A stretch of DNA of 64,000 bases from the IMG/VR virus record IMGVR_UViG_3300009514_000013, positions 1 to 64,000 of that record; one strand, given 5' to 3'. A model generated the notes under the pieces. That model did no database searches. It saw nothing but the letters and a program-made list of their open reading frames with translations, and had not been told where the DNA came from. Each line of letters opens with the position of its first letter. Position 1 is the first letter of the stretch. The stretch is from a virus. Positions 3,921 to 42,212 of this stretch are shown here, piece by piece. The position numbers and the translations under genes were made by a program.

Positions 3921-4109
3921 TGGTTTCAACTCATTTCTAAGCGAGTCCTCAAGCGAGTCCTCAAGCGAGGACCTAAGCGAGGAGCCAAGCGAGGGCCAAA
4001 GTGAGGTCTCAAGCGAGGAGCCAAGCGAGGAGCCAAGCGAGGAGCCAAGCGAGTCCTCAAGCGAGAACTCAAGCGAGGACCAAAGTGACTTCATTTCAAT
4101 CTTTTTCAT
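3891..4109 (-). CDS. SLxx tetrapeptide-repeat microprotein 1 (about 13 x 12-bp units)
   Basis: MKKIEMK-(SLxx)n-ELK; ATG overlaps TGA of upstream gene (TGATG). Confidence 0.7.
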   Translation of the reverse strand: MKKIEMKSLWSSLEFSLEDSLGSSLGSSLGSSLETSLWPSLGSSLRSSLEDSLEDSLRNELKPSLRNHDSST

Positions 4110-4594
4110 CAATCCAATCCTTTCCAAAACATGATTGGCAGTTCAACCAAATGAACACCAGCTACATCTCTTGCGTATTCCTCGACACCGATCAAGAAAT
4201 CTTGAAAGACATCTAGCGTTGGAGAACCGAGAAGAGCTTCACACCCATCAACTGACCAATGAAGAAACAATGGTTGACCCTCCCACTTGAGAACAGACCA
4301 GATGTCATCTCCCCAGTTGTATGGCCATTCTCTTTCTTCTACCTTCACCTCTTTGTTCTGATCTTTGAGAGAACGATCATATGGAACATACGGACCATCA
4401 TCTCTACCCCAGAACAGTTGTGGTCCCATAGCAGCCCACGTCTTGATCGGTTGAGCGTTTGTCAAGAAAGCTTTGAGAGTCACAGGTTGCAGCATTGTGT
4501 AGAGGGTACCTCTGAGAACAAGAGGTAGAGTTGGATCCCCTAATGGATGCTCCCAGGATGGGAAAGGTTGTCTATGAAGATTGTTGAAGTTCAT
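4109..4594 (-). CDS. hypothetical protein
   Basis: 161-aa ORF tiling the leftward operon. Confidence 0.6.
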   Translation of the reverse strand: MNFNNLHRQPFPSWEHPLGDPTLPLVLRGTLYTMLQPVTLKAFLTNAQPIKTWAAMGPQLFWGRDDGPYVPYDRSLKDQNKEVKVEEREWPYNWGDDIWSVLKWEGQPLFLHWSVDGCEALLGSPTLDVFQDFLIGVEEYARDVAGVHLVELPIMFWKGLD

Positions 4595-4799
4595 CTTCTA
4601 TCCGTCTCAAAGACCAAAGCGAGTCCTCAAGCGAGAACTCAAGCGAGTCCTCAAGCGAGAACTCAAGCGAGGAGCCAAGCGAGGACCTAAGCGAGGAGCC
4701 AAGCGAGGACCAAAGCGAGGAGCCAAGCGAGGACCAAAGCGAGGAGCCAAGCGAGGACCTAAGCGAGGAGTCAATATGTTTCATTTCAAATTCCTTCAT
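4572..4799 (-). CDS. SLxx repeat microprotein 2 (about 13 units)
   Basis: MKEFEMK...(SLxx)n...DEL; starts 1 nt after the RuvC stop. Confidence 0.7.
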   Translation of the reverse strand: MKEFEMKHIDSSLRSSLGSSLWSSLGSSLWSSLGSSLRSSLGSSLEFSLEDSLEFSLEDSLWSLRRIEDELQQSS

Positions 4800-6577: not shown

Positions 6578-7416
6578 GAGTGTACTCCTACAACAATCAA
6601 CTCTTTCAGTTTTCGTTTTCGACCTTCCGATCGGCAGCTGATTGATCGATTCATGTCTACTTCGACGATCTTGAAATCTTCAAAAGTATTTCGAGTCCAT
6701 TCAGCATCGCTGCTAGACAGCATCACGTGAACACCTTTGTCATGTAGATCTTTATAAAGACCAGCCAATCGTTCATGATCATCCATGGTGAATCGGTTTC
6801 TGGTATACGAAGTGAACGAGGATGTCTTCGACACAGGGATGTAGGGTGGATCGAAATAGACAAAGTCTCCAGGAAGACAACTTTCACAAATTGTTTCAAA
6901 GTCTAATCTGAGAATCGTCGCTGTCTTTCTGAGTGTCTTGGCAACAGCTCTCAAGTTCTCCTCATCTAGGATCTTTGGGTTCTTGAACTTTCCATATGGG
7001 ACATTGAATTCACCCGATCGGTTCAAACGAAACAGGCCGTTGTAGCATGTCTTGTTTAGGTAGATCGTGCGAGCAGCTGCTTCTGTTGCTGTTAGCTCGA
7101 TTGGTTGCTGTTGTCGAAGTTCTAGGAAGAAATTCTTCTCTCGTTTCTGATGTTCCGACTGAAAAACTTCAAGGATTTTAATAACCCCATCACAGTCTGA
7201 AGCTAAAGAGTGATAGGTATTGATCAATTCTGAATTGAGATCACTGAGACTTGCTCCCAAGTTCAATCGAGAGTTTCTAGCTAGTGAGAAGTACAGTGCT
7301 CCACCACCAAGGAATGGTTCGTAGTACCTACCAAAGGTTTTGGGGATGTACTCCATCAAGTTGGGAAGAAGCCGTTTCTTTCCACCGGCGTATTTCAGAA
7401 ACGGTTTAGGAATCAC
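6574..7416 (-). CDS. dam: DNA adenine methyltransferase, Dam/D12 class
   Basis: KYAGGK, EPFLGGGA, NGLFRLN..GEFNVPYG, DPPY. Confidence 0.92.
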   Translation of the reverse strand: MIPKPFLKYAGGKKRLLPNLMEYIPKTFGRYYEPFLGGGALYFSLARNSRLNLGASLSDLNSELINTYHSLASDCDGVIKILEVFQSEHQKREKNFFLELRQQQPIELTATEAAARTIYLNKTCYNGLFRLNRSGEFNVPYGKFKNPKILDEENLRAVAKTLRKTATILRLDFETICESCLPGDFVYFDPPYIPVSKTSSFTSYTRNRFTMDDHERLAGLYKDLHDKGVHVMLSSSDAEWTRNTFEDFKIVEVDMNRSISCRSEGRKRKLKELIVVGVHS

Positions 7417-7733
7417 TGTTTCAACTCCTCTCTAAGCGAGGACCAAAGCGAGGACCTAAGCGAGTCCTCAAGCGAGTACCTAAGCGAGTCCTCAAGCGAG
7501 GTCTCAAGCGAGGACCTAAGCGAGGAGTAAAGCGAGGAGCCAAGCGAGTCCTCAAGCGAGGAGCCAAGCGAGAACCAAAGCGAGGACCAAAGCGAGAACC
7601 TAAACGAGTACCTAAGCGAGTCCTCAAGCGAGTCCTCAAGCGAGAACTCAAGCGAGTCCTCAAGCGAGGAGCCAAGCGAGGACCTAAGCGAGGTCTCAAG
7701 CGATTTCAATTTGATTTTCTCATCCATGAACAT
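7413..7733 (-). CDS. SLxx repeat microprotein 4 (about 23 units), first gene of leftward operon
   Basis: (SLxx)n-ELKQ; stop overlaps Dam start. Confidence 0.7.
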   Translation of the reverse strand: MFMDEKIKLKSLETSLRSSLGSSLEDSLEFSLEDSLEDSLRYSFRFSLWSSLWFSLGSSLEDSLGSSLYSSLRSSLETSLEDSLRYSLEDSLRSSLWSSLREELKQ

Positions 7734-12238: not shown

Positions 12239-12489
12239 TTAATGAAGTCGAGGTGGTGTGCAACCACATGCAACAAGAGAGTGAATATCATTCCATCGTG
12301 GAAATGGCGCAAGAAGGAGTCCTACAAGGGATGGAGATGCGGGGTATTGTTGATGAGATCGAATCTCATCTTAAACGTCGCATGTTCCCAAATGAAGTTC
12401 TCATTTTGGGTGATGAGATGGACAAAGCAGAACGTTTGATTGAACGAGATGAGCAAGACTACAGGGACATGGTGCGATGGACGATCTGA
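12235..12489 (+). CDS. hypothetical protein
   Basis: AAAGGTG RBS; overlaps upstream stop. Confidence 0.5.
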   Translation: MINEVEVVCNHMQQESEYHSIVEMAQEGVLQGMEMRGIVDEIESHLKRRMFPNEVLILGDEMDKAERLIERDEQDYRDMVRWTI

Positions 12490-12704
12490 AGGAAATGAAG
12501 CCACTTAGGTTCTCGCTTGGCTCCTCGCTTAGGTCCTCGCTTTGGTCCTCGCTTGGCTCCTCGCTTTGGTCCTCGCTTAGGTCCTCGCTTGAGGACTCGC
12601 TTAGGTACTCGCTTGGCTCCTCGCTTGGCTCCTCGCTTGAGGACTCGCTTGGGTACTCGCTTTGGTCCTCGCTTTGGTTCTCGCTTAGAGATGAGTTGGA
12701 TTAA
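12477..12704 (+). CDS. SLxx repeat microprotein 5 (about 16 units)
   Basis: KEMK-PLRF-(SLxx)n-ELD; end overlaps primase start. Confidence 0.7.
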   Translation: MDDLKEMKPLRFSLGSSLRSSLWSSLGSSLWSSLRSSLEDSLRYSLGSSLGSSLEDSLGYSLWSSLWFSLRDELD

Positions 12705-13701
12705 TCTAGACGTCATAGAACTTCTTCAAGTTCTGAAGATCGAAGTTCACAAGTCGGGAACCGAGTTTCGTGGCCACTGTCCTGATCCGGATCATAAGAA
12801 GCGTCCAGGTCCAGGATCTTGGCAAATCAAGCCGAGAGGGAAGAAGGCTGGTCAACATTACTGCTACGCCTGTGGATTTGGTGGTGGTCCGTTTAATCTC
12901 GTTCAGACGGTCCTCGGACTTTCGAAGCAAGAAACTTGGAAATGGCTTTCGGACTTCTGTGGGAACACAATCCCCCAAGGAACTTCGATCGTCTCAAGTG
13001 TCAAAGAAGACGAGGATTCTATTTCTCTTCGATTTCCTAAAGGTACTCGTATTTTATGGGGTGATGTGAATGCATCGGTCCAAGAAGCTAGAGAGTATTT
13101 GGAATCCAGAGGTGTGGTTGAAGAAGAGATTAAACGTTTCAAGATGGGTGCTGTCCCCGTCGATTCCCCTTCTTACGGTGGGCGGTTGATCATTCCGGTG
13201 ATCGTCAACGGTCACTTGGTGGATTATGTTGCGCGTCTATACGTAGATCGTCCGAGTAGTGTCCCTAAAGCACTGTCCGGTAGAAGGGACAGAGGGGCTC
13301 AAAAGGAACTGTCTCTATGGGCTTACGATTTTTTGGATCCAGATCTTGAGGTTGTGCACGTTGTTGAAGGTGTGTGGGGTGCTCTTGCATTGATGAGGGC
13401 TGGTGTCCCCAATGTTGTGGCCTCCTGTGGTTCGTCATGGAGTCCTGAACGCACTGAGTTGTTGGAGCCGTGGGTATCAATCATTCTGATACCCGATGGA
13501 GATGATGCGGGTTCAAAGTTTGAAGCTAGGGCTAGTTCTCTTCGGTTCGGTCATGATTACCGAGTTGTCGATTTACCTCACAAGATGCAACCGGATGACA
13601 TTCCACCGAATCAAATCCATGAGTTGATTGCTGGAGCTCGCCCAGCTCGATTAGCTGATGGTTGCCAAGTTCGATTACAAGAGTTTTCCGGGAAAGATTG
13701 A
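12691..13701 (+). CDS. DNA primase (CHC2 zinc finger + TOPRIM)
   Basis: CPDPDH...CYAC, VVEGVW, PDGDDAG; true start likely MSWINL at 12691. Confidence 0.85.
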   Translation: MSWINLDVIELLQVLKIEVHKSGTEFRGHCPDPDHKKRPGPGSWQIKPRGKKAGQHYCYACGFGGGPFNLVQTVLGLSKQETWKWLSDFCGNTIPQGTSIVSSVKEDEDSISLRFPKGTRILWGDVNASVQEAREYLESRGVVEEEIKRFKMGAVPVDSPSYGGRLIIPVIVNGHLVDYVARLYVDRPSSVPKALSGRRDRGAQKELSLWAYDFLDPDLEVVHVVEGVWGALALMRAGVPNVVASCGSSWSPERTELLEPWVSIILIPDGDDAGSKFEARASSLRFGHDYRVVDLPHKMQPDDIPPNQIHELIAGARPARLADGCQVRLQEFSGKD

Positions 13702-20919: not shown

Positions 20920-22008
20920 ATGAGTAAGGTTGCCTTCGTTGCCGATGTTCATCTTGGCAACCATCAACGGTACGGTGGAGCTATCGAACTTGGGATGAAC
21001 CGTCGTTGTCGTGAAGTTCTTGAAACTCTGAAAGTAGCTGTAGCTGAAGCTGATGAGTGCGAATCTTTCGGAGTACTTGGTGATCTCTTTGATGTTACTA
21101 AGCCAATTCCACAGATGGTGAAAGCTGTTCAGGACATCCTAGAACCATCACCATCTCCATTCGTCATGATGGGAAATCATGATCAAGTCTCTTCAAGATC
21201 TGGAGATCATGCTCTAGGTCCTCTGGAGCCTGTCTCGGAAGTTATCGAAACGCCTAACCTCATCCACCTAGATGACTGTGACCTGGTTGTTTTACCTTTC
21301 CGGCCAGGTGTCGCCGATGATTGGGTTCCAGAGGACCTAGATTCCTTGTTTTCAAACAGGAGAATTCGTCCAGGTTCTGTTCTCTGTTTGCACCTAGGGA
21401 TCAAAGATTCTGAAACACCTAGCTATCTGACCGGTTCTCATGACTGCATCGACGTTGATCATGTAGCTGAGCTGATGCAGCGATATGACATCATCGCGAC
21501 AGTTGCGGGTAACTGGCATGAGTTGAAGAGTTGGAAGCGTGGTAAAAGTCAGATTCTTCAGATAGGCACTCTTGCTCCAACCGGCTGGGACAATCCGGGC
21601 CTTGATGATTACGGCCATATGGCTATCTGGGATTCGAAGACGATGACGTTTGATGTTCTCGAGATTCCAGGTCCACGCTTCTTGAAGATACGAGATCGAG
21701 AAGAGTTGAAAGCATTACCTCCTGGAGATGAATACGAGATCTACCTTGAGTGGACTGTATCAGATCCGAATGACTTGGTGAGTGCAAACCAAGAGATTGA
21801 GGAGATGATCAGTAAAGGTCGTATCGTCGCTGGTGGTGCATTCCTAGACAAGAAAGAGCAAGAGAAGAAAGCGAGAGTGTCAGCCAAAGCAGCTGCATCA
21901 AGTGAGACTTTGGAAGATGCACTATCGGCTTACATCAACACCATGGAGCTGGATGAACGAGTGACAACAGATCGGCTGATTGGTCTCACCAAGAGGTACT
22001 TGGGATGA
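20920..22008 (+). CDS. SbcD/Mre11-like nuclease
   Basis: ADVHLG, GDLFD, GNHD, GNWH; paired with SbcC-like gene. Confidence 0.88.
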   Translation: MSKVAFVADVHLGNHQRYGGAIELGMNRRCREVLETLKVAVAEADECESFGVLGDLFDVTKPIPQMVKAVQDILEPSPSPFVMMGNHDQVSSRSGDHALGPLEPVSEVIETPNLIHLDDCDLVVLPFRPGVADDWVPEDLDSLFSNRRIRPGSVLCLHLGIKDSETPSYLTGSHDCIDVDHVAELMQRYDIIATVAGNWHELKSWKRGKSQILQIGTLAPTGWDNPGLDDYGHMAIWDSKTMTFDVLEIPGPRFLKIRDREELKALPPGDEYEIYLEWTVSDPNDLVSANQEIEEMISKGRIVAGGAFLDKKEQEKKARVSAKAAASSETLEDALSAYINTMELDERVTTDRLIGLTKRYLG

Positions 22009-24747: not shown

Positions 24748-26010
24748 ATGAGTTACAATTTCTCTATGGCTACAAGTCAGAAACGACCTAGAGCAAATCA
24801 ACTCGCCCATATCCTTTCTGATCTCAGAAAACTCGCTGTCCCAATCGAATCCCTCAATCCAGATCCAGAAAACACCAGACGTCACTCGGAATCTGATCTG
24901 AACGTCATCAAGTCTTCTCTTGATGAACTCGGCCAGCACCGACCACTTGTTGTCCAGAAGGAAGGTCGGATCATCCGCGTTGGTAATGGTACTTGGACAG
25001 CTGCAAAGGAATTAGGGTGGAAATGGATAGCCGCGGTTGTTGTTGACGAAGACCGTATGACTGCCACAAGACGATCAATCCTCGATAACCGAACTGCTGA
25101 ACTCTCTGAGTGGGATACTGATCAGCTCGTAAAGCGCCTTGATGAAGCCAAGGAAGACGATTGGGAACTAGAAGACTTCGGCTGGGATGATGAAGAACTT
25201 GCTAGGTTGACTGCTTCTGAGGTTGAAGATGAAGAGGTAGATTTTGAAGAGGTTGTCGAGGATGAAGTTCCGGAGCCTCCCAAGAAAGCAGTTTCGAAGC
25301 TAGGTGATGTTTGGAAACTGGGTGATCATATATTGGTTTGTGGCGATTCTCGCGATTCGCAATCTTATTCATCTTTTGATTCTTCGTTTCATATGGTTCT
25401 GACAGATCCTCCTTATGGAGTTGGGTATGTAGGTGGTACTGGTTTGACCATCCAAAATGATACTGAAGATGGGTTGGAAGAAATGTTGACGAATGTTTTT
25501 GGCAATGTTTTGGAAAAGTGTGAAAAAGGATCTATGTGGTACGTTTTTGGACCACCCGGTCCACTTGGAATAATATTTGGGAGAGTTTTATTATCGTTTG
25601 GTGTATTGAGACAGATTCTCATATGGGTGAAAGACCGATTGGTTTTAGGAAGATCTCATTTCCATTACCGCAACGAGCCGATTTTTTATGGATGGAGTGG
25701 AACAAGTTCCAGACATCCTCCTCCAAACAGAAAGCAGGATTCTGTTTGGGAGTTTGATCGACCACATGCCAACAAAGAACATCCTACGATGAAACCTCTG
25801 AATCTACTTCAGCATGCGATCGTGATGGGATCTTCGAAAGGTGATTTTATAGTTGATCCGTTTTCTGGTTCTGGATCTACACTAATAGCATCTGAGGCTA
25901 CCGAAAGAATTTGTTGTTCTGTTGAAATCGATCCTAGATACTCAGATGTCATCATCGAACGTTGGGAGAACTTCACTGGTAAGAAGGCAAAGAGAATCAA
26001 GAAAGGTTAG
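24748..26010 (+). CDS. ParB-like N-terminal domain fused to N4C/N6A DNA methyltransferase
   Basis: LNPDPENTRRH..GNGT..DNRTAELSEWD ParB-N; TDPPYG, HPTMKP, DPFSGSGST. Confidence 0.88.
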   Translation: MSYNFSMATSQKRPRANQLAHILSDLRKLAVPIESLNPDPENTRRHSESDLNVIKSSLDELGQHRPLVVQKEGRIIRVGNGTWTAAKELGWKWIAAVVVDEDRMTATRRSILDNRTAELSEWDTDQLVKRLDEAKEDDWELEDFGWDDEELARLTASEVEDEEVDFEEVVEDEVPEPPKKAVSKLGDVWKLGDHILVCGDSRDSQSYSSFDSSFHMVLTDPPYGVGYVGGTGLTIQNDTEDGLEEMLTNVFGNVLEKCEKGSMWYVFGPPGPLGIIFGRVLLSFGVLRQILIWVKDRLVLGRSHFHYRNEPIFYGWSGTSSRHPPPNRKQDSVWEFDRPHANKEHPTMKPLNLLQHAIVMGSSKGDFIVDPFSGSGSTLIASEATERICCSVEIDPRYSDVIIERWENFTGKKAKRIKKG

Positions 26011-27152
26011 CAACCCGGCCAGAGAATCTCTGAGATGAATACTGGGATCTGATTGGTATGGATCGGAAACAACCTTCCATCGGTTTCGTTTGCAATGTCA
26101 TCAAAAAATGCTTGTAGCTCAACAAATCCGTAGAATGTGATACCTCTCGCTTTCAACTCGTTTGCCACATCTTGCTCTGTTAACCCTCTTGCACTTTGAC
26201 CATGTTCATCAGCAAACAAGAAGATGAATCGATTTGCTCCTGGTCTCCAATGTACGAACCTTCCCTTAGCCGCATCACTGATGATGTCGTATGACAGTTC
26301 GCTACTTCCAAATGTCCTGGTCATAGAAGCCAGGTTGTTCGGGTCAGGGCATGGTCCAACTGGAAATGTCATGCCTAGCGAATAGCATTCTCTATTTGGA
26401 GAAGCTGTTGAGGTGGTGTTCCCACCAGGCATGTCGATTGGGAACATAGCCACATCAGTGGAATCGTCTTGAGTCTGTCGATTCCAGTAGTCAGCCAGCG
26501 AATCTCCAACAACAGAGACACGAGTTCCCATTGAACAACTACGGTCGATAATCACTACGATGTCGATTTTGACTACGTCCCCTGTGTTTGGAACGTCATC
26601 CACAACTCCATTACAATCGTTATCGATCTGGTCACATCGTTCGGCGAATGGAAGAACCTGACCTTCACAAATCCACTTTCCATAATCACAATAAGAAAGT
26701 CCTATTTTGCATGGTGGGTGTGTAGCTTTCCAAAACTCAGCATCGAAGCACCAGTCTCTGGCGATCCCGTCATCAACCAACCCGTTGCAGTCGTTGTCTG
26801 AACCGTCACATTCTTCTGGTTGTTTCTTGTAATCGGTTGAACAGACGATCTCTTCCCCGTTGCAGACAGTCCGTCCCCCTCGACAGATGCCCAACCCACA
26901 TGATTCTCCGACCCCACCGATCCGGTCGTCGACTTCACCATTGCAGTCATTGTCAATACCGTCACAAATCTCATCGCTTGGAAGAATGTCACCGACACAT
27001 GAGACACCTATCGATGATGTTTCAGTGGTTCCAGGCCGACATTGCCCAACTCCCGAAGTTCCACTTGGTCCCGAATAGCAAGAACCGTAGTGACTCACGA
27101 GTGGTTCTTCACACGCATATAGAAGTACCAAGAGGATTGAAAGGCTTCTCAT
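26007..27152 (-). CDS. lipoprotein with three ExCDGxDNDCNG (MopE-like putative metal-binding) repeats and a vWA domain
   Basis: LLVLLYAC lipobox; CDGIDNDC, CDGSDNDC, CDQIDNDC; IVVIIDRSCS MIDAS, FADE. Confidence 0.8.
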   Translation of the reverse strand: MRSLSILLVLLYACEEPLVSHYGSCYSGPSGTSGVGQCRPGTTETSSIGVSCVGDILPSDEICDGIDNDCNGEVDDRIGGVGESCGLGICRGGRTVCNGEEIVCSTDYKKQPEECDGSDNDCNGLVDDGIARDWCFDAEFWKATHPPCKIGLSYCDYGKWICEGQVLPFAERCDQIDNDCNGVVDDVPNTGDVVKIDIVVIIDRSCSMGTRVSVVGDSLADYWNRQTQDDSTDVAMFPIDMPGGNTTSTASPNRECYSLGMTFPVGPCPDPNNLASMTRTFGSSELSYDIISDAAKGRFVHWRPGANRFIFLFADEHGQSARGLTEQDVANELKARGITFYGFVELQAFFDDIANETDGRLFPIHTNQIPVFISEILWPGC

Positions 27153-29530: not shown

Positions 29531-29917
29531 ATGTATAGACAAGGCGATGTGTTCATTTTTCCAGTGAAGGATCCTGGTTCTGAGAATGTTGGTCCAGAAG
29601 TGAAGCGAGACAACGGTCGAGTGGTGCTTCAATACGGTGAGGTGACTGGTCATGCTCATGCAATTCATGAATCACCTGTTCATTTGTTTGATTTCAGCGA
29701 TGACTTTCTGAAATCGAATGAGTCATTTCGAAAGAACGTTGAAGATGTCATTGGAGCGCCATTGGATCCTCAAATCGATCGGTTGTTGACGGTTGGTGAA
29801 ATGTCGGCACTAGTTCACGAAGAGCACGATACAATTCCGATTCCTCCAGGAACGTACATTGCAAGGAGGCAGCATGAGTACAGCGATCGTGAGCGTGAAC
29901 GATACGTTGAGGATTAA
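29531..29917 (+). CDS. conserved RQGDV-motif protein, habitual neighbour of DUF6745 genes
   Basis: YRQGDV, GEVTGHAH, LVHEEHDTI, PPGTY..RRQHEY; AGGAG RBS. Confidence 0.75.
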   Translation: MYRQGDVFIFPVKDPGSENVGPEVKRDNGRVVLQYGEVTGHAHAIHESPVHLFDFSDDFLKSNESFRKNVEDVIGAPLDPQIDRLLTVGEMSALVHEEHDTIPIPPGTYIARRQHEYSDRERERYVED

Positions 29918-30077
29918 GAGGGATCTTTATAGGTACACACCGAATTCACTACGTTGGGATCTCATGCATGGTGTCGCTCACCCTTTGGGAGATGCATTAC
30001 GCTTGTCTTTGATTCTCAAGGTTGAGGCAGAACTAGAAAGGTATAAAAATGGAGAAAATCAAAGAACTAACACCTGA
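29907..30077 (+). CDS. degenerate SLxx-like microprotein (start uncertain)
   Basis: DLYR..NSLRWDLMH..HPLGDALRLSL..ELE 4-residue Leu periodicity. Confidence 0.4.
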   Translation: MRIKRDLYRYTPNSLRWDLMHGVAHPLGDALRLSLILKVEAELERYKNGENQRTNT

Positions 30078-31002
30078 ACAGAAAGCCGAGATGGTTGTCT
30101 GGCGAAAGCGATGGTTTGACATTGGGTCATGTTGCGATCCAGCTGACAAGCCAAAAGCAGAAGCAGCCATCTCGAAGATGTACGAGCTCATCGGTCAGAC
30201 TGCACCAAAGTTCATTTGGTGCAAGAGTCCACTTGATGCAAATCGAGAGATTCACCGCTACTCAAAAGGGTTACCGGCTGATCATTCTCTCGAAGGTGAA
30301 GACATCGAAATCCAGGGGGCATACCAATGGGGGCAGATGGACTCCTACTGGATTTCTTTCTACCTCTTCTGTCGGGATGTAGTTGGTGTTGAGTACTCTG
30401 AGAAAGATTCAGAGACGTTGGACCTATGGTCTGAGATTGCTCAGTCTTGTGGTTGGTGGTGGCCTTATGAAGGTGTGTGTTTTGTGTCTGACCGCCCTCT
30501 TGCGGTTCATTGGGAAGACGATCGGGATCCTCCTAGGATTCACAATCCGAATGGACCAGCTGTGGAGTACCGTGATGGATTCAAGGTCTACGCTATTCGG
30601 GACATCCGGGTAGAGCCAAGGATTATCGAGAATCCAGAAACCATCACGTTCGAGGAGATACTCAGAGAGCGAAACGCTGAGATCCGTAGAGTCCTACTCA
30701 GGCAATACGGTGAAGAGCGATTTGTGAATGATTCGCGAGTGAAGATGTTTGCCCAAGATGAAGAAGGTATCCTCTATTCGATTGATGGTGAGGACATCGA
30801 CTTCATGTTGCTCAAGGTCATCAATTCAACGCCTGAACCAGATGGTAGCCTTAAGCCGTATTTTCTCACGACGTTCACTAGTACTGAGACGACGAGAGAG
30901 AATACTGGTATCGACTACCACGGACCATGGACACCTCACGCAGCTAGAGCGATCAGCTTCAAGATTCATCCAGACAAGTTCAATTGTTTGATGGAGACCT
31001 AG
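30049..31002 (+). CDS. DUF6745-domain protein
   Basis: IKELTPEQ, WCKSP, WGQMDSYW, SCGWWWPYEGVCFVSDRP, IHNPNGPAVEYRDG, ERNAEIRRV, VINSTPEPDGS..YFL. Confidence 0.8.
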   Translation: MEKIKELTPEQKAEMVVWRKRWFDIGSCCDPADKPKAEAAISKMYELIGQTAPKFIWCKSPLDANREIHRYSKGLPADHSLEGEDIEIQGAYQWGQMDSYWISFYLFCRDVVGVEYSEKDSETLDLWSEIAQSCGWWWPYEGVCFVSDRPLAVHWEDDRDPPRIHNPNGPAVEYRDGFKVYAIRDIRVEPRIIENPETITFEEILRERNAEIRRVLLRQYGEERFVNDSRVKMFAQDEEGILYSIDGEDIDFMLLKVINSTPEPDGSLKPYFLTTFTSTETTRENTGIDYHGPWTPHAARAISFKIHPDKFNCLMET

Positions 31003-31003
31003 G

Positions 31004-31189
31004 ATGAAGAAAGTTGAAATGAAACCTCTTAGCTCCTCGCTTAGGTCCTCGTTTAGCTCCTCGCTTTGGTCCTCGCTTGGCTCCTCGCTTTGGTCCTCGC
31101 TTGGCTCCTCGCTTAGGTCCTCGCTTGGCTCCTCGCTTGGCTCCTCGCTTAGGTCCTCGCTTGAGGAAGAGTTGAGGTCTCGACGTTAA
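31004..31189 (+). CDS. SLxx repeat microprotein 7 (about 12 units)
   Basis: MKKVEMK-PLSS-(SLxx)n-EEL; starts 1 nt after the DUF6745 stop. Confidence 0.72.
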   Translation: MKKVEMKPLSSSLRSSFSSSLWSSLGSSLWSSLGSSLRSSLGSSLGSSLRSSLEEELRSRR

Positions 31190-31200
31190 AGCGATTTAAC
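31185..31200. promoter_or_regulatory. 16-bp palindromic site GTTAAA-GCGA-TTTAAC
   Basis: contains stop codon of upstream gene; ATG 4 nt downstream. Confidence 0.65.
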
Positions 31201-31860: not shown

Positions 31861-32595
31861 ATGGCAAAAGCACGAATATCCGAAAAGAAATACAACCTCC
31901 TCCTAGAAGCATTTCGCGAAGTCCCTGGAAGGACATGGAAGGCATCTGAGATCGCCGGAGTGCAGCCTAAAACCGCACAAAGAGCTTGGGAACGCGGTTG
32001 GGATGATCCGATATGGGCTCGAACTCCGATCAGAGAAATCGTCGAGAAAGAACAGATTGCAGCTAGAGCAGAGCTTCAACGCCAAGGTGAAAAAGAGAAA
32101 GCCAAAGACACGGCTGATCGCGAGAAAGCTAAACTCGACATTGTCCAACAACGAACCAAAGAAGCAGCCGGTATCAGGAACTCCACCACCAACGTTCTCG
32201 CCATCATTCAGAACCAAGGGAAATTCCTACAGAGTACCCAACGCATCAACGATCATCTCCTGGTCAAGTTTGAAGAAGATGTCAAAGCAAACAAGATCTC
32301 GGTGAAGGAGTACACTCAGATTATCAACAGCCTGGCCAATGCTGTGACGAGAGCTGTTCAAGGTCTGAAGACCGGAATGGAAGCAGCAAGACTCTACCTT
32401 GGAGAACCTGAGCAGATCGTTGGTTTCGTCCAACCTCAGGTGAACTATCAACTCGACTACAACAAAGCAGAAGCTACATTCGGAGCTGAGTTCATCAAGA
32501 AGGTCATGAGAGACTTGGCGGAAGAGAGGATGACTGCAGAGGTCGATCGCTTCTTCGAATGGGAACATGAGCAAAGGAACATGGAGTTGAACTGA
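31861..32595 (+). CDS. probable terminase small subunit
   Basis: N-terminal HTH (KASEIAGVQPKTAQRAW), helical body, upstream of TerL ATPase gene. Confidence 0.5.
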   Translation: MAKARISEKKYNLLLEAFREVPGRTWKASEIAGVQPKTAQRAWERGWDDPIWARTPIREIVEKEQIAARAELQRQGEKEKAKDTADREKAKLDIVQQRTKEAAGIRNSTTNVLAIIQNQGKFLQSTQRINDHLLVKFEEDVKANKISVKEYTQIINSLANAVTRAVQGLKTGMEAARLYLGEPEQIVGFVQPQVNYQLDYNKAEATFGAEFIKKVMRDLAEERMTAEVDRFFEWEHEQRNMELN

Positions 32596-32771
32596 TGAAG
32601 CAGTTGGAGATGAAAAATGTCAGGCGTGATCTTGATAAGACTCTTGGTTCCTCCATTGTCATGAGACTCGATGCGTTCATTACGTCATCTATTTTTCATC
32701 CACTCATGGATTCGCTTCATCAGTCACTTGTAGGCTCAGTACGTCGTGAAGAGAGAAGAGAGTTGAAGTGA
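32595..32771 (+). CDS. degenerate SLxx-like microprotein (58 aa, below ORF-track cutoff)
   Basis: my translation MKQLEMKNVRRDLDKTLGSSIVMRLDAFITSSIFHPLMDSLHQSLVGSVRREERRELK shares MKxxEMK start and ELK end. Confidence 0.6.
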   Translation: MKQLEMKNVRRDLDKTLGSSIVMRLDAFITSSIFHPLMDSLHQSLVGSVRREERRELK

Positions 32772-32956
32772 TGGAGCCGCTTATGAATGAAGTGAATTCA
32801 AAGCTCAAGCATCCGCTCATGGATCGACTCTATACATTGCTTTCATTTCAACCTCATATTCTACACCCGCTCGATGTTTCTCTTTGGGGATCACTAGGAA
32901 GATCATTCCTAGTAGGAGTTCGTACATGTTTGAACGAAAAGACGAGTTCGAAATGA
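32768..32956 (+). CDS. degenerate SLxx-like microprotein
   Basis: HPLMDRLY..HPLDVSLWGSLGRSF; coupled. Confidence 0.5.
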   Translation: MMEPLMNEVNSKLKHPLMDRLYTLLSFQPHILHPLDVSLWGSLGRSFLVGVRTCLNEKTSSK

Positions 32957-33096
32957 AATTCAGGTCTTTGAATGAGACCTTGGCAGAGTCGCTTGAGTAC
33001 TCCATCGAGGGCGCTCTCAGATTTTCACTTGAGAAACCGCTTAGGGATTCTCTTATCCGGTCGCTGGTGATGCATCTTTCCATGAAGAGTGAATAA
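32953..33096 (+). CDS. degenerate SLxx-like microprotein
   Basis: MKFRSLNETLAESLEYSIEGALRFSLEKPLRDSLIRSL. Confidence 0.55.
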   Translation: MKFRSLNETLAESLEYSIEGALRFSLEKPLRDSLIRSLVMHLSMKSE

Positions 33097-42005: not shown

Positions 42006-42212
42006 ATGAAGAAATTGAAATCGCTTAGGTACTCGCTTGGCTCCTCGCTTTACTACTCGCTTTACTCCTCGCTTGAGGACTCGCTTAGGCACTCGCCTAG
42101 GTACTCGCCTTGGTCCTCGTTTAGCTCCTCGCTTTACTCCCCGCTTTGGTTCTCGCTTTGGTCCTCGCTTAGGTTCTCGCTTTGGTCCCAAATGTGTTTA
42201 ACAAAGGAATAA
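42006..42212 (+). CDS. SLxx repeat microprotein 8 (about 14 units, several variant)
   Basis: MKKLK-(SLxx)n; TTGACC-N18-CATGCT at 41960-41989 upstream. Confidence 0.68.
   Translation: MKKLKSLRYSLGSSLYYSLYSSLEDSLRHSPRYSPWSSFSSSLYSPLWFSLWSSLRFSLWSQMCLTKE

Follow-up and report, generated by a model that had tools for sequence, protein, structure and literature searches.

The window considered here, a stretch of 64,000 nucleotides (nt), is the first 64 kb of the 84,362-bp virus record IMGVR_UViG_3300009514_000013, which is 90% complete according to CheckV. Its DNA is phage-like, with a GC content of 0.45–0.50. Three + strand open reading frames (ORFs) lie head to tail at 29531-29917, 30049-31002 and 31004-31189, and encode an RQGDV-family protein, a DUF6745 protein and a mini-protein made largely of SLxx tetrapeptides. 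In most phage relatives a long tetrapeptide tract is part of the DUF6745 protein, whereas in the window the DUF6745 gene is tract-less and repeats of this kind are found in free-standing mini-genes (Table 1), an arrangement that recurs in several lineages.

The 317-aa product of 30049-31002 matches the PF20530 (DUF6745) hidden Markov model with an E-value of 1.3e-42 and 145.8 bits, the gathering cut-off of the Pfam family being 27 bits; none of the other eight proteins in the same Pfam scan reaches a family cut-off. It aligns with its homologues over the full length, all nearly invariant columns are present, including the motifs W..SP, GQ..W, GWWWPY, RLH..GPA and NAE.RR, and it is the sole DUF6745 ORF of the 84-kb genome. 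Residues 62-93 (nt 30232-30327), bracketed by S60-P61 and W94-G95-Q96, form a non-repetitive linker of 32 residues whose longest 4-periodic run is 3, and the internal tetrapeptide tract typical of phage DUF6745 is not present. A first-pass annotation made from the letters alone had recognized the RQGDV–DUF6745 pair, a non-repetitive interval of about 32 residues between SP and WGQ, and a clean SLxx micro-gene 1 nt after the DUF6745 stop; all three were confirmed, the interval with exact coordinates. Database searches add little on function. PHROGs matches of the window proteins are limited to two families with no function assigned in that resource, the PADLOC-DB defence models gave 0 families for 5 proteins, an NCBIfam scan of the module proteins gave no match, and PDB profile searches with DUF6745 and with RQGDV returned nothing below E 0.25. 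ESM Atlas matches are confined to unnamed or DUF6745 clusters, the latter mostly viral.

The RQGDV protein starts with MYRQGDV, carries GEVTGHAH and HEEH, and matches phrog_27831 (E 1.1e-9). A Pfam scan assigned it to no family, and among 40 RQGDV proteins gave single chance hits only. An alignment of 40 sequences has A3, G40, H43, H99 and the C-terminal Asp (D128) as invariant residues, and the proteins of the family, ~100-130 aa long, probably have a His-based metal site. In the window its gene precedes DUF6745 on the same strand, with a spacer of 131 nt. This neighbourhood is strongly conserved: of 55 loci from phages or metagenomes, 52 have RQGDV adjoining DUF6745, the three misses all being cut by contig ends, and the count for bacterial loci, mostly Actinomycetota, is 77 of 80 (L236 and L244 yielded no RQGDV-like ORF, and the RQGDV gene of L269 lies 7 kb off). 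The family is also large, with 9,840 clusters (50% identity) at E ≤ 1e-3. Relatedness of the two core proteins was considered and rejected, as hhalign gave a probability of 0.8%. Separately, one ESM Atlas structural match paired a DUF6745 cluster of 366 aa with the RQGDV model. One 586-aa homologue on a 2.2-kb contig (P0126) has an RQGDV N-part in frame with a DUF6745 bearing an ATxx-type tract, being either a fusion or a frame error, and the other longer DUF6745 homologues include no informative fusion.

The mini-gene downstream of DUF6745 (stop ending at 31002, ATG at 31004) is composed of the leader MKKVEMKPL, SLxx units and the tail EEELRSRR, with 10 TCGCTT units across 11 unit positions; its stop falls within GTTAAAGCGATTTAAC (window 31185-31200). 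Exactly nine 12-bp-periodic TCGCTT arrays exist in the whole genome, all of them within the window and each in an ORF of 59-104 aa. They amount to 124 units of 22 DNA types, with TCGCTT fixed in 120 and TCACTT in the remaining 4. Position 3 of the units is G, W, R or E and position 4 is S, D, F or Y, the commonest being SLGS (27), SLED (25), SLWS (17) and SLRS (13). Array length varies from 10 to 23 units, and the net charge of the mini-proteins spans +5 to -14. By comparison, the ends are conserved: the leaders (9-12 aa) are mostly ATGAAGAAAGTTGAAATGAAACC (MKKVEMKP), and the tails are of the ELK type, such as LREELK. All mini-genes lie on the coding strand of their neighbours, several overlap these by 1-4 nt, and eight of the nine are scattered singly across 42 kb among unrelated genes. 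Beside one of them, the + strand ORF 12517-13701 opens inside the array of mini-gene 12477-12704 in another frame, and its true start is probably the ATG overlapping the last codons of that mini-gene.

Some 5-8 further copies are degenerate candidates (starting at 22005, 22498, 24621, 32595, 32768, 32884, 33864 and 34128). The decayed copies retain period-4 hydrophobics, and 32595-32771 retains both termini too. Together with the nine clean copies, they make the earlier figure of up to about 18 variants a fair upper bound. The same annotation had placed two micro-genes by the core, of which the downstream one is clean and the degenerate one in the spacer is weak. The spacer candidate (29859/29964-30077) has ~5 periodic positions, below the detection threshold of 6 period-4 positions, so it is unproven and not separable from chance alone; a relic at 29964-30077 is plausible by synteny with the mini-genes that occupy this place in a related contig, L203.

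What the window lacks is commonplace among its relatives. We collected 227 DUF6745 homologues at E ≤ 1e-5, with 120 among the matches listed, and DUF6745 matches 371 stretches in genome_contigs (one genome per species, 185,579 species). A 12-bp array in the DUF6745 frame is present at 45 of 54 phage loci (L001-L054); of the other nine, four are truncated at a contig end beyond the site and five are complete genes without an array. Likewise, 93 of the 147 rows in the tree of DUF6745 bodies bear a tract. In the alignment the tract is always located between W..SP and GQ..W, it comprises 8-55 tetrapeptide units, and its flavours among the homologues listed are SLxx, QLxx, NLxx, SVxx and QVxx, besides tract-less forms. 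The family layout stated in the first-pass annotation, with a tract at this site and an adjacent RQGDV gene, thus agrees with the loci. The nearest deposited phage protein (UOF77368.1 of MW202476; 45% identity across the aligned two-thirds of the query) has, exactly in the interval from FIWCDSP to FWGQ, ~30 SSL[G/W/R/E] units, and an RQGDV-like ORF comes after its gene. Similarly, the Mycobacterium abscessus prophage prophiGD102-1 encodes an RQGDV-like gp37 and a DUF6745 gp38 with ~50 QLxx units. Both have core genes homologous to those of the window and a tract at the site of the window linker, and the flavour in MW202476 is that of the window mini-genes; unlike in the window, the proteins themselves contain the tract, and the MW202476 genome, scanned in full, has no free mini-genes. 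At the same site, two homologues of 786 and 780 aa (P0122, P0123) have a non-repetitive insert of ~500 aa with motifs such as RDSIRDGMRD, which looks like a fully diverged tract.

The tract-less layout with free mini-genes recurs in four other loci, where a DUF6745 gene of the short-linker form, an RQGDV gene and detached repeat mini-genes occur together, on the same strand save for the second L204 mini-gene. L037, a 115.7-kb AT-rich viral contig, has a repeat-less DUF6745 with an RQGDV-like gene 22 nt downstream and eight tandem genes of 49-89 aa (MKSLRDQV, xxQV units, RNALI) joined by ATGA overlaps, with three more nearby. The degenerate repeat pattern matches this record 83 times, on one strand, versus 0 for the control, and the matches form three clusters within 19 kb, the remaining 96.7 kb having no array. 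The second-closest relative of the window protein (49% identical) is encoded on the 102.5-kb metagenome contig L203, in the order RQGDV, 4-5 mini-genes, repeat-less DUF6745 and nine mini-genes; these follow the scheme M[T/I][E/K]LGxxL ... SLRELDD and overlap by 8 nt at 10 of the 11 junctions checked. In L204, RQGDV and a repeat-less DUF6745 are accompanied by a mini-gene ~20 nt downstream and by another on the opposite strand, while L208 has one copy, a mini-ORF ending just before the repeat-less DUF6745, at a locus cut by the contig end. Across these lineages the copy number is 2-15. The other split loci have tandem, overlap-chained mini-genes beside the core; a spread over 42 kb in place of a chained array is distinctive of the window. 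L037 carries QVxx mini-genes and the tract of its sister L038 is also QVxx, which means that the repeat flavour follows the DUF6745 lineage. As to breaks at the tract site, L209 (705-1913) has a stop codon within the NLxx tract of DUF6745 and in L207 (3-1538) a 131-aa ORF separates N-domain and C-domain ORFs, and these two cases show that the site is a tolerated break point.

Searches with the mini-proteins and their DNA were less productive. HMMER with a 75-aa mini-protein gave 1,872 word candidates, none at E ≤ 1e-3, which is not evidence of absence given the low complexity of the query. A pattern search with a 66-aa mini-protein gave 180 pattern matches, none confirmed, and a degenerate scan for the MKKxEMKxL leader gave 0 matches. 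A scan for four TCGCTT units at 12-bp spacing hit at least 117 stretches, of which 4 were DUF6745 tracts and nearly all were unrelated simple repeats. Candidate arrays outside DUF6745 in L255 and L302 were rejected as dipeptide repeats with a 12-bp period, and periodicity matches in L015 and L018 were false, lying inside or antisense to large ORFs.

The distribution of tracts and mini-genes is complementary. All five short-linker DUF6745 loci with visible flanks (the window, L037, L203, L204 and L208) have free mini-genes. Among 46 non-duplicate loci, five have mini-genes and no tract, four have neither, 37 have a tract and no mini-genes, and none has both (Fisher p 9e-5, uncorrected for kinship). 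Left out of this table are hits available as proteins only, and so lacking context, genes that are split or cut at the N-end, three identical duplicates and loci below 4.5 kb without mini-genes; L208 was retained though short. Because the mini-genes of the window are dispersed, five tract-bearing phage genomes were scanned whole (four 99-100% complete by CheckV, the fifth, MW202476, deposited as complete), and each has a single array, inside DUF6745, and no free mini-gene. A FastTree phylogeny built from the 147 DUF6745 bodies after removal of the tract columns implies at least 4 changes of the split state. The window and L203 share one short-linker clade (support 93), L204 and L037 fall in a starred clade among tract-bearing genes, and L208 falls in another starred clade. 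The association of tract loss with mini-genes is strong in raw counts and not yet significant once kinship is respected.

The mini-genes look translated. The DNA of the repeat unit is wholly different across genomes (TCGCTT in the window, CAAGTC in L037) and the peptide pattern is retained. The period-4 position in L203 is hydrophobic in 167 of 195 units (12 of its 13 mini-genes analysed), and is encoded by a mixture of Leu codons (CTT, CTC, CTA, TTA, CTG and TTG), the Ser codons being TCA, TCG, TCT and TCC. Conserved starts, stops and gene overlaps are confined to the SL frame. These observations bear on the idea that the arrays act as DNA or RNA, for example as protein-binding sites, recombination hot spots or selfish repeats, and that the ORFs are incidental. 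Such a role would fit the near-invariance of TCGCTT within the genome, synonymous sites included, and the fact that every array is open in its three sense frames. However, the peptide pattern outlives complete change of the unit DNA between genomes, the DNA-diverged L203 copies keep their period-4 Leu with mixed codons, ATG leaders and stops are conserved in one frame, and most relatives encode the array within a long protein. We consider a role as nucleic acid very improbable. An origin of the mini-genes as the remains of additional, decayed copies of DUF6745 is hardly credible: degenerate copies do exist, but no remnants of the N- or C-domain occur elsewhere in the genome, every clean copy is complete with a start, leader and tail of its own, and several lineages share the architecture.

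The segment following SP suggests how much of DUF6745 was lost. Its first 14 residues are hydrophobic in proteins with a tract (mean +0.96, n=93) or an insert (+0.96, n=20) and polar in the short-linker forms (-0.24, n=34; Mann-Whitney p 8e-12, uncorrected). In the window protein these residues (62-75, nt 30232-30273) are polar, as in other short-linker forms, and the inserted unit as a whole, both helix and tract, seems to be gone.

The explanation that fits best, and that we rate a little above an even chance, is that the window carries the split form of a widespread two-gene phage accessory module made of RQGDV and DUF6745. The usual DUF6745 holds a variable [polar]-[L/V]-x-x tract between an N-domain of ~60 aa and a C-domain of ~220 aa. 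In the window phage, the tract and the hydrophobic helix that precedes it would have moved out of the DUF6745 gene, and nine clean and several decayed mini-genes, embedded in local-strand operons, would supply tract-only proteins of 59-104 aa. That the tract has repeatedly become a separate protein by natural fission speaks for a repeat able to function without a tether, and we infer that it is an autonomous working part and not a mere spacer. The paralogues, which differ in unit number and charge, may then be a standing set of differently tuned variants. Working together with the RQGDV–DUF6745 core, they would serve the task that the tract serves in cis, most likely, by analogy with gp54 of phage Tweety, the neutralization of a host or prophage defence. 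A more specific version, in which the tract is a portable, self-sufficient recognition element and a shuffled repertoire of at least nine mini-proteins plugs into, or is handled by, one RQGDV–DUF6745 core, is tentative and on balance doubtful. The interpretation originally proposed for the module as a whole, a core served in trans by detached repeats, is partly supported.

Several observations weigh against a split module that acts with its core. Eight of the nine window mini-genes lie 11-27 kb away from the core genes. The surface flanking the tract in cis is not kept in short-linker proteins, which speaks against mini-proteins simply docking again where the tract was. Four tract-less loci (L013, L026, L027 and L054), which have a non-repetitive insert of 48-78 aa, show no mini-genes in their flanks, and the 80 bacterial loci have none. 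The expectation that repeat-less DUF6745 co-occurs with micro-genes holds for the 5/5 short-linker loci and fails for these four insert-bearing ones. One of the five positive loci, L208, is short, and without it the counts are 4/8 versus 0/37 (p ~5e-4). Independent pairs on the tree gave 3 as predicted, 0 opposite and 2 with no difference (sign test p 0.25, 5 pairs). Further, the phage protein that suggests a function, gp54 of Tweety, has a ~140-aa N-domain and a ~40-aa C-tail unrelated to DUF6745 (no Pfam match; hhalign probability 0.13%) and no RQGDV neighbour; as it shares nothing with DUF6745 outside the repeat, the functional analogy is confined to the repeat itself.

Some of these points favour a different explanation, in which the mini-proteins act on their own, as effectors or decoys with no need of DUF6745 or RQGDV, fission having freed the repeat so that its distribution merely reflects origin. 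The siting of most window mini-genes in other operons, far from the core, and the loss of the hydrophobic post-SP segment would be natural under such independence, and in gp54 a tetrapeptide tract works in an unrelated scaffold. Against independence, mini-genes flank or abut the core in L037, L203, L204 and L208, free mini-genes accompany a tract-bearing DUF6745 in 0/37 loci and 0/5 genomes, and the repeat flavour tracks the DUF6745 lineage. We regard full autonomy as unlikely, albeit a serious contender.

A third possibility is an enzyme–substrate system of the kind known for ribosomally synthesized and post-translationally modified peptides (RiPPs), in which the repeat peptides would be modified or cut by RQGDV as a metal enzyme, by DUF6745, or by both. 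The fused and split borosin pathways would offer a parallel. The setting, in which numerous small genes whose leader and tail are conserved and whose core is hypervariable lie beside two conserved proteins, has the look of such a system, and the invariant His residues and C-terminal Asp of RQGDV would suit an enzyme. However, the core genes, scanned against Pfam and NCBIfam, belong to no known modifying-enzyme, protease or exporter family, the tract of the fused form is internal, between two domains, and cores of 10-55 units are far longer than is usual for RiPPs. A RiPP-like system is improbable.

For the split module, the closest published comparison is Tweety gp54. In its description, gp54 contains 48 AA[G/W/Q][S/Y] units of 12 bp, compared with 26 in Che8 gp57 and 15 in PMC gp51 (PMC2884959). 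According to a review (PMC9262239), Tweety mutants that escape the (p)ppGpp-synthetase defence of Phrann gp29/gp30 map to gene 54 with an altered number of repeats, and the repeat is proposed there to set the juxtaposition of the two end domains. By these accounts, gp54 is dispensable and its repeat number decides whether the Phrann defence is overcome. The repeats of gp54 and of the window mini-genes are alike in their 12-bp units, in two fixed first residues and in last residues drawn from a small set including G/W and S/Y. They differ in that gp54 is AAxx and the window SLxx, and gp54 is one gene whereas the window has a family of free-standing copies. Judged on sequence, the window genes are not members of the gp54 family and the resemblance is limited to the repeat.

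Diversity-generating retroelements offer a second comparison, and region VR2 in bbp36 of Bordetella phage BMP-1, with 24-bp elements, is named as a parallel to gp54 in PMC2884959. Like these, the window has localized variability in a phage accessory protein; unlike a retroelement, it varies in unit number and in the use of a shared vocabulary of 22 units. A retroelement was rejected, as there is no RVT_1 match in the 84-kb record (90% complete). The absence of a reverse transcriptase points to variation by gain, loss and shuffling of units.

Tunable tetrapeptide-repeat phage proteins and DUF6745 modules are thus known already, and the split layout is a variant of them. The proposal of an undescribed system holds in so far as we found no paper that names DUF6745 or PF20530, although both RQGDV and DUF6745 are abundant, and gives way in so far as tunable repeat proteins such as gp54 are in print. 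The split layout may allow phages to hold numerous pre-tuned counter-defence variants simultaneously. If so, one phage could pre-empt many defence variants without awaiting repeat-number mutants, the viral equivalent of an immune repertoire. The repeat of gp54, the only experimentally studied tetrapeptide-repeat phage protein and one for which the published explanation is a length spacer, would then be a binding surface.

Table 1. Positions of the core genes, the repeat mini-genes and the candidate members in the window
Feature	Position	Strand	Basis or remark
RQGDV-family gene, 128 aa	29531..29917	+	QGD, GHxH and HxEH motifs; invariant C-terminal Asp; phrog_27831
Candidate relic mini-gene in spacer between core genes, weak	29964..30077	+	~5 period-4 L/V positions in PLGDALRLSLILKVEAEL
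DUF6745 gene, 317 aa, short-linker (tract-less) form	30049..31002	+	PF20530
Non-repetitive 32-residue linker at usual tract site	30232..30327	+	Alignment; periodicity score 3
(SLxx)n mini-gene, 61 aa, leader MKKVEMKPL	31004..31189	+	1 nt after DUF6745 stop
(SLxx)n mini-gene, 72 aa	3891..4109	-	Abuts same-strand gene 4109-4594
(SLxx)n mini-gene, 75 aa	4572..4799	-	
(SLxx)n mini-gene, 88 aa	5686..5952	-	
(SLxx)n mini-gene, 104 aa, longest array (22-23 units)	7413..7727	-	4-nt overlap with downstream same-strand gene
(SLxx)n mini-gene, 75 aa	12477..12704	+	
(SLxx)n mini-gene, 59 aa	17172..17351	+	4-nt overlap with next gene
(SLxx)n mini-gene, 68 aa, units partly degraded (SP for SL)	42006..42212	+	
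(SLxx)n mini-gene, 66 aa	45967..46167	+	4-nt overlap with upstream gene
Diverged member, 58 aa	32595..32771	+	MKQLEMK start, RRELK end, period-4 hydrophobics; aligned with clean copies
Diverged candidate member, contains EFEMKFRSLNETLAESL	32884..33096	+	Leader resembles that of 4572-4799 by eye
Degenerate candidate member, 75 aa	22005..22232	+	Periodicity alone
Degenerate candidate member, 62 aa	34128..34316	+	Periodicity alone

Outside phages, the RQGDV–DUF6745 pair is conserved in Actinomycetota chromosomes (L234-L310) with a non-repetitive insert of 53-253 aa. Its neighbour is a gene for the exporter ThrE in all three Actinomadura/Spirillospora loci that were scanned and, in 2 of 3 scanned Streptomyces/Kitasatospora loci, a divergent protein that matches LRR_6 weakly; among the actinobacterial neighbours (ThrE, TerC, radical SAM and the weak LRR_6 protein) there is no consistent partner. 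The ESM Atlas also lists cyanobacterial fusions of DUF6745 with LRR. Elsewhere in the window, a 381-aa ORF on the - strand (26007-27152) has repeated CDGxDNDCNGxxDD motifs and a likely signal peptide.

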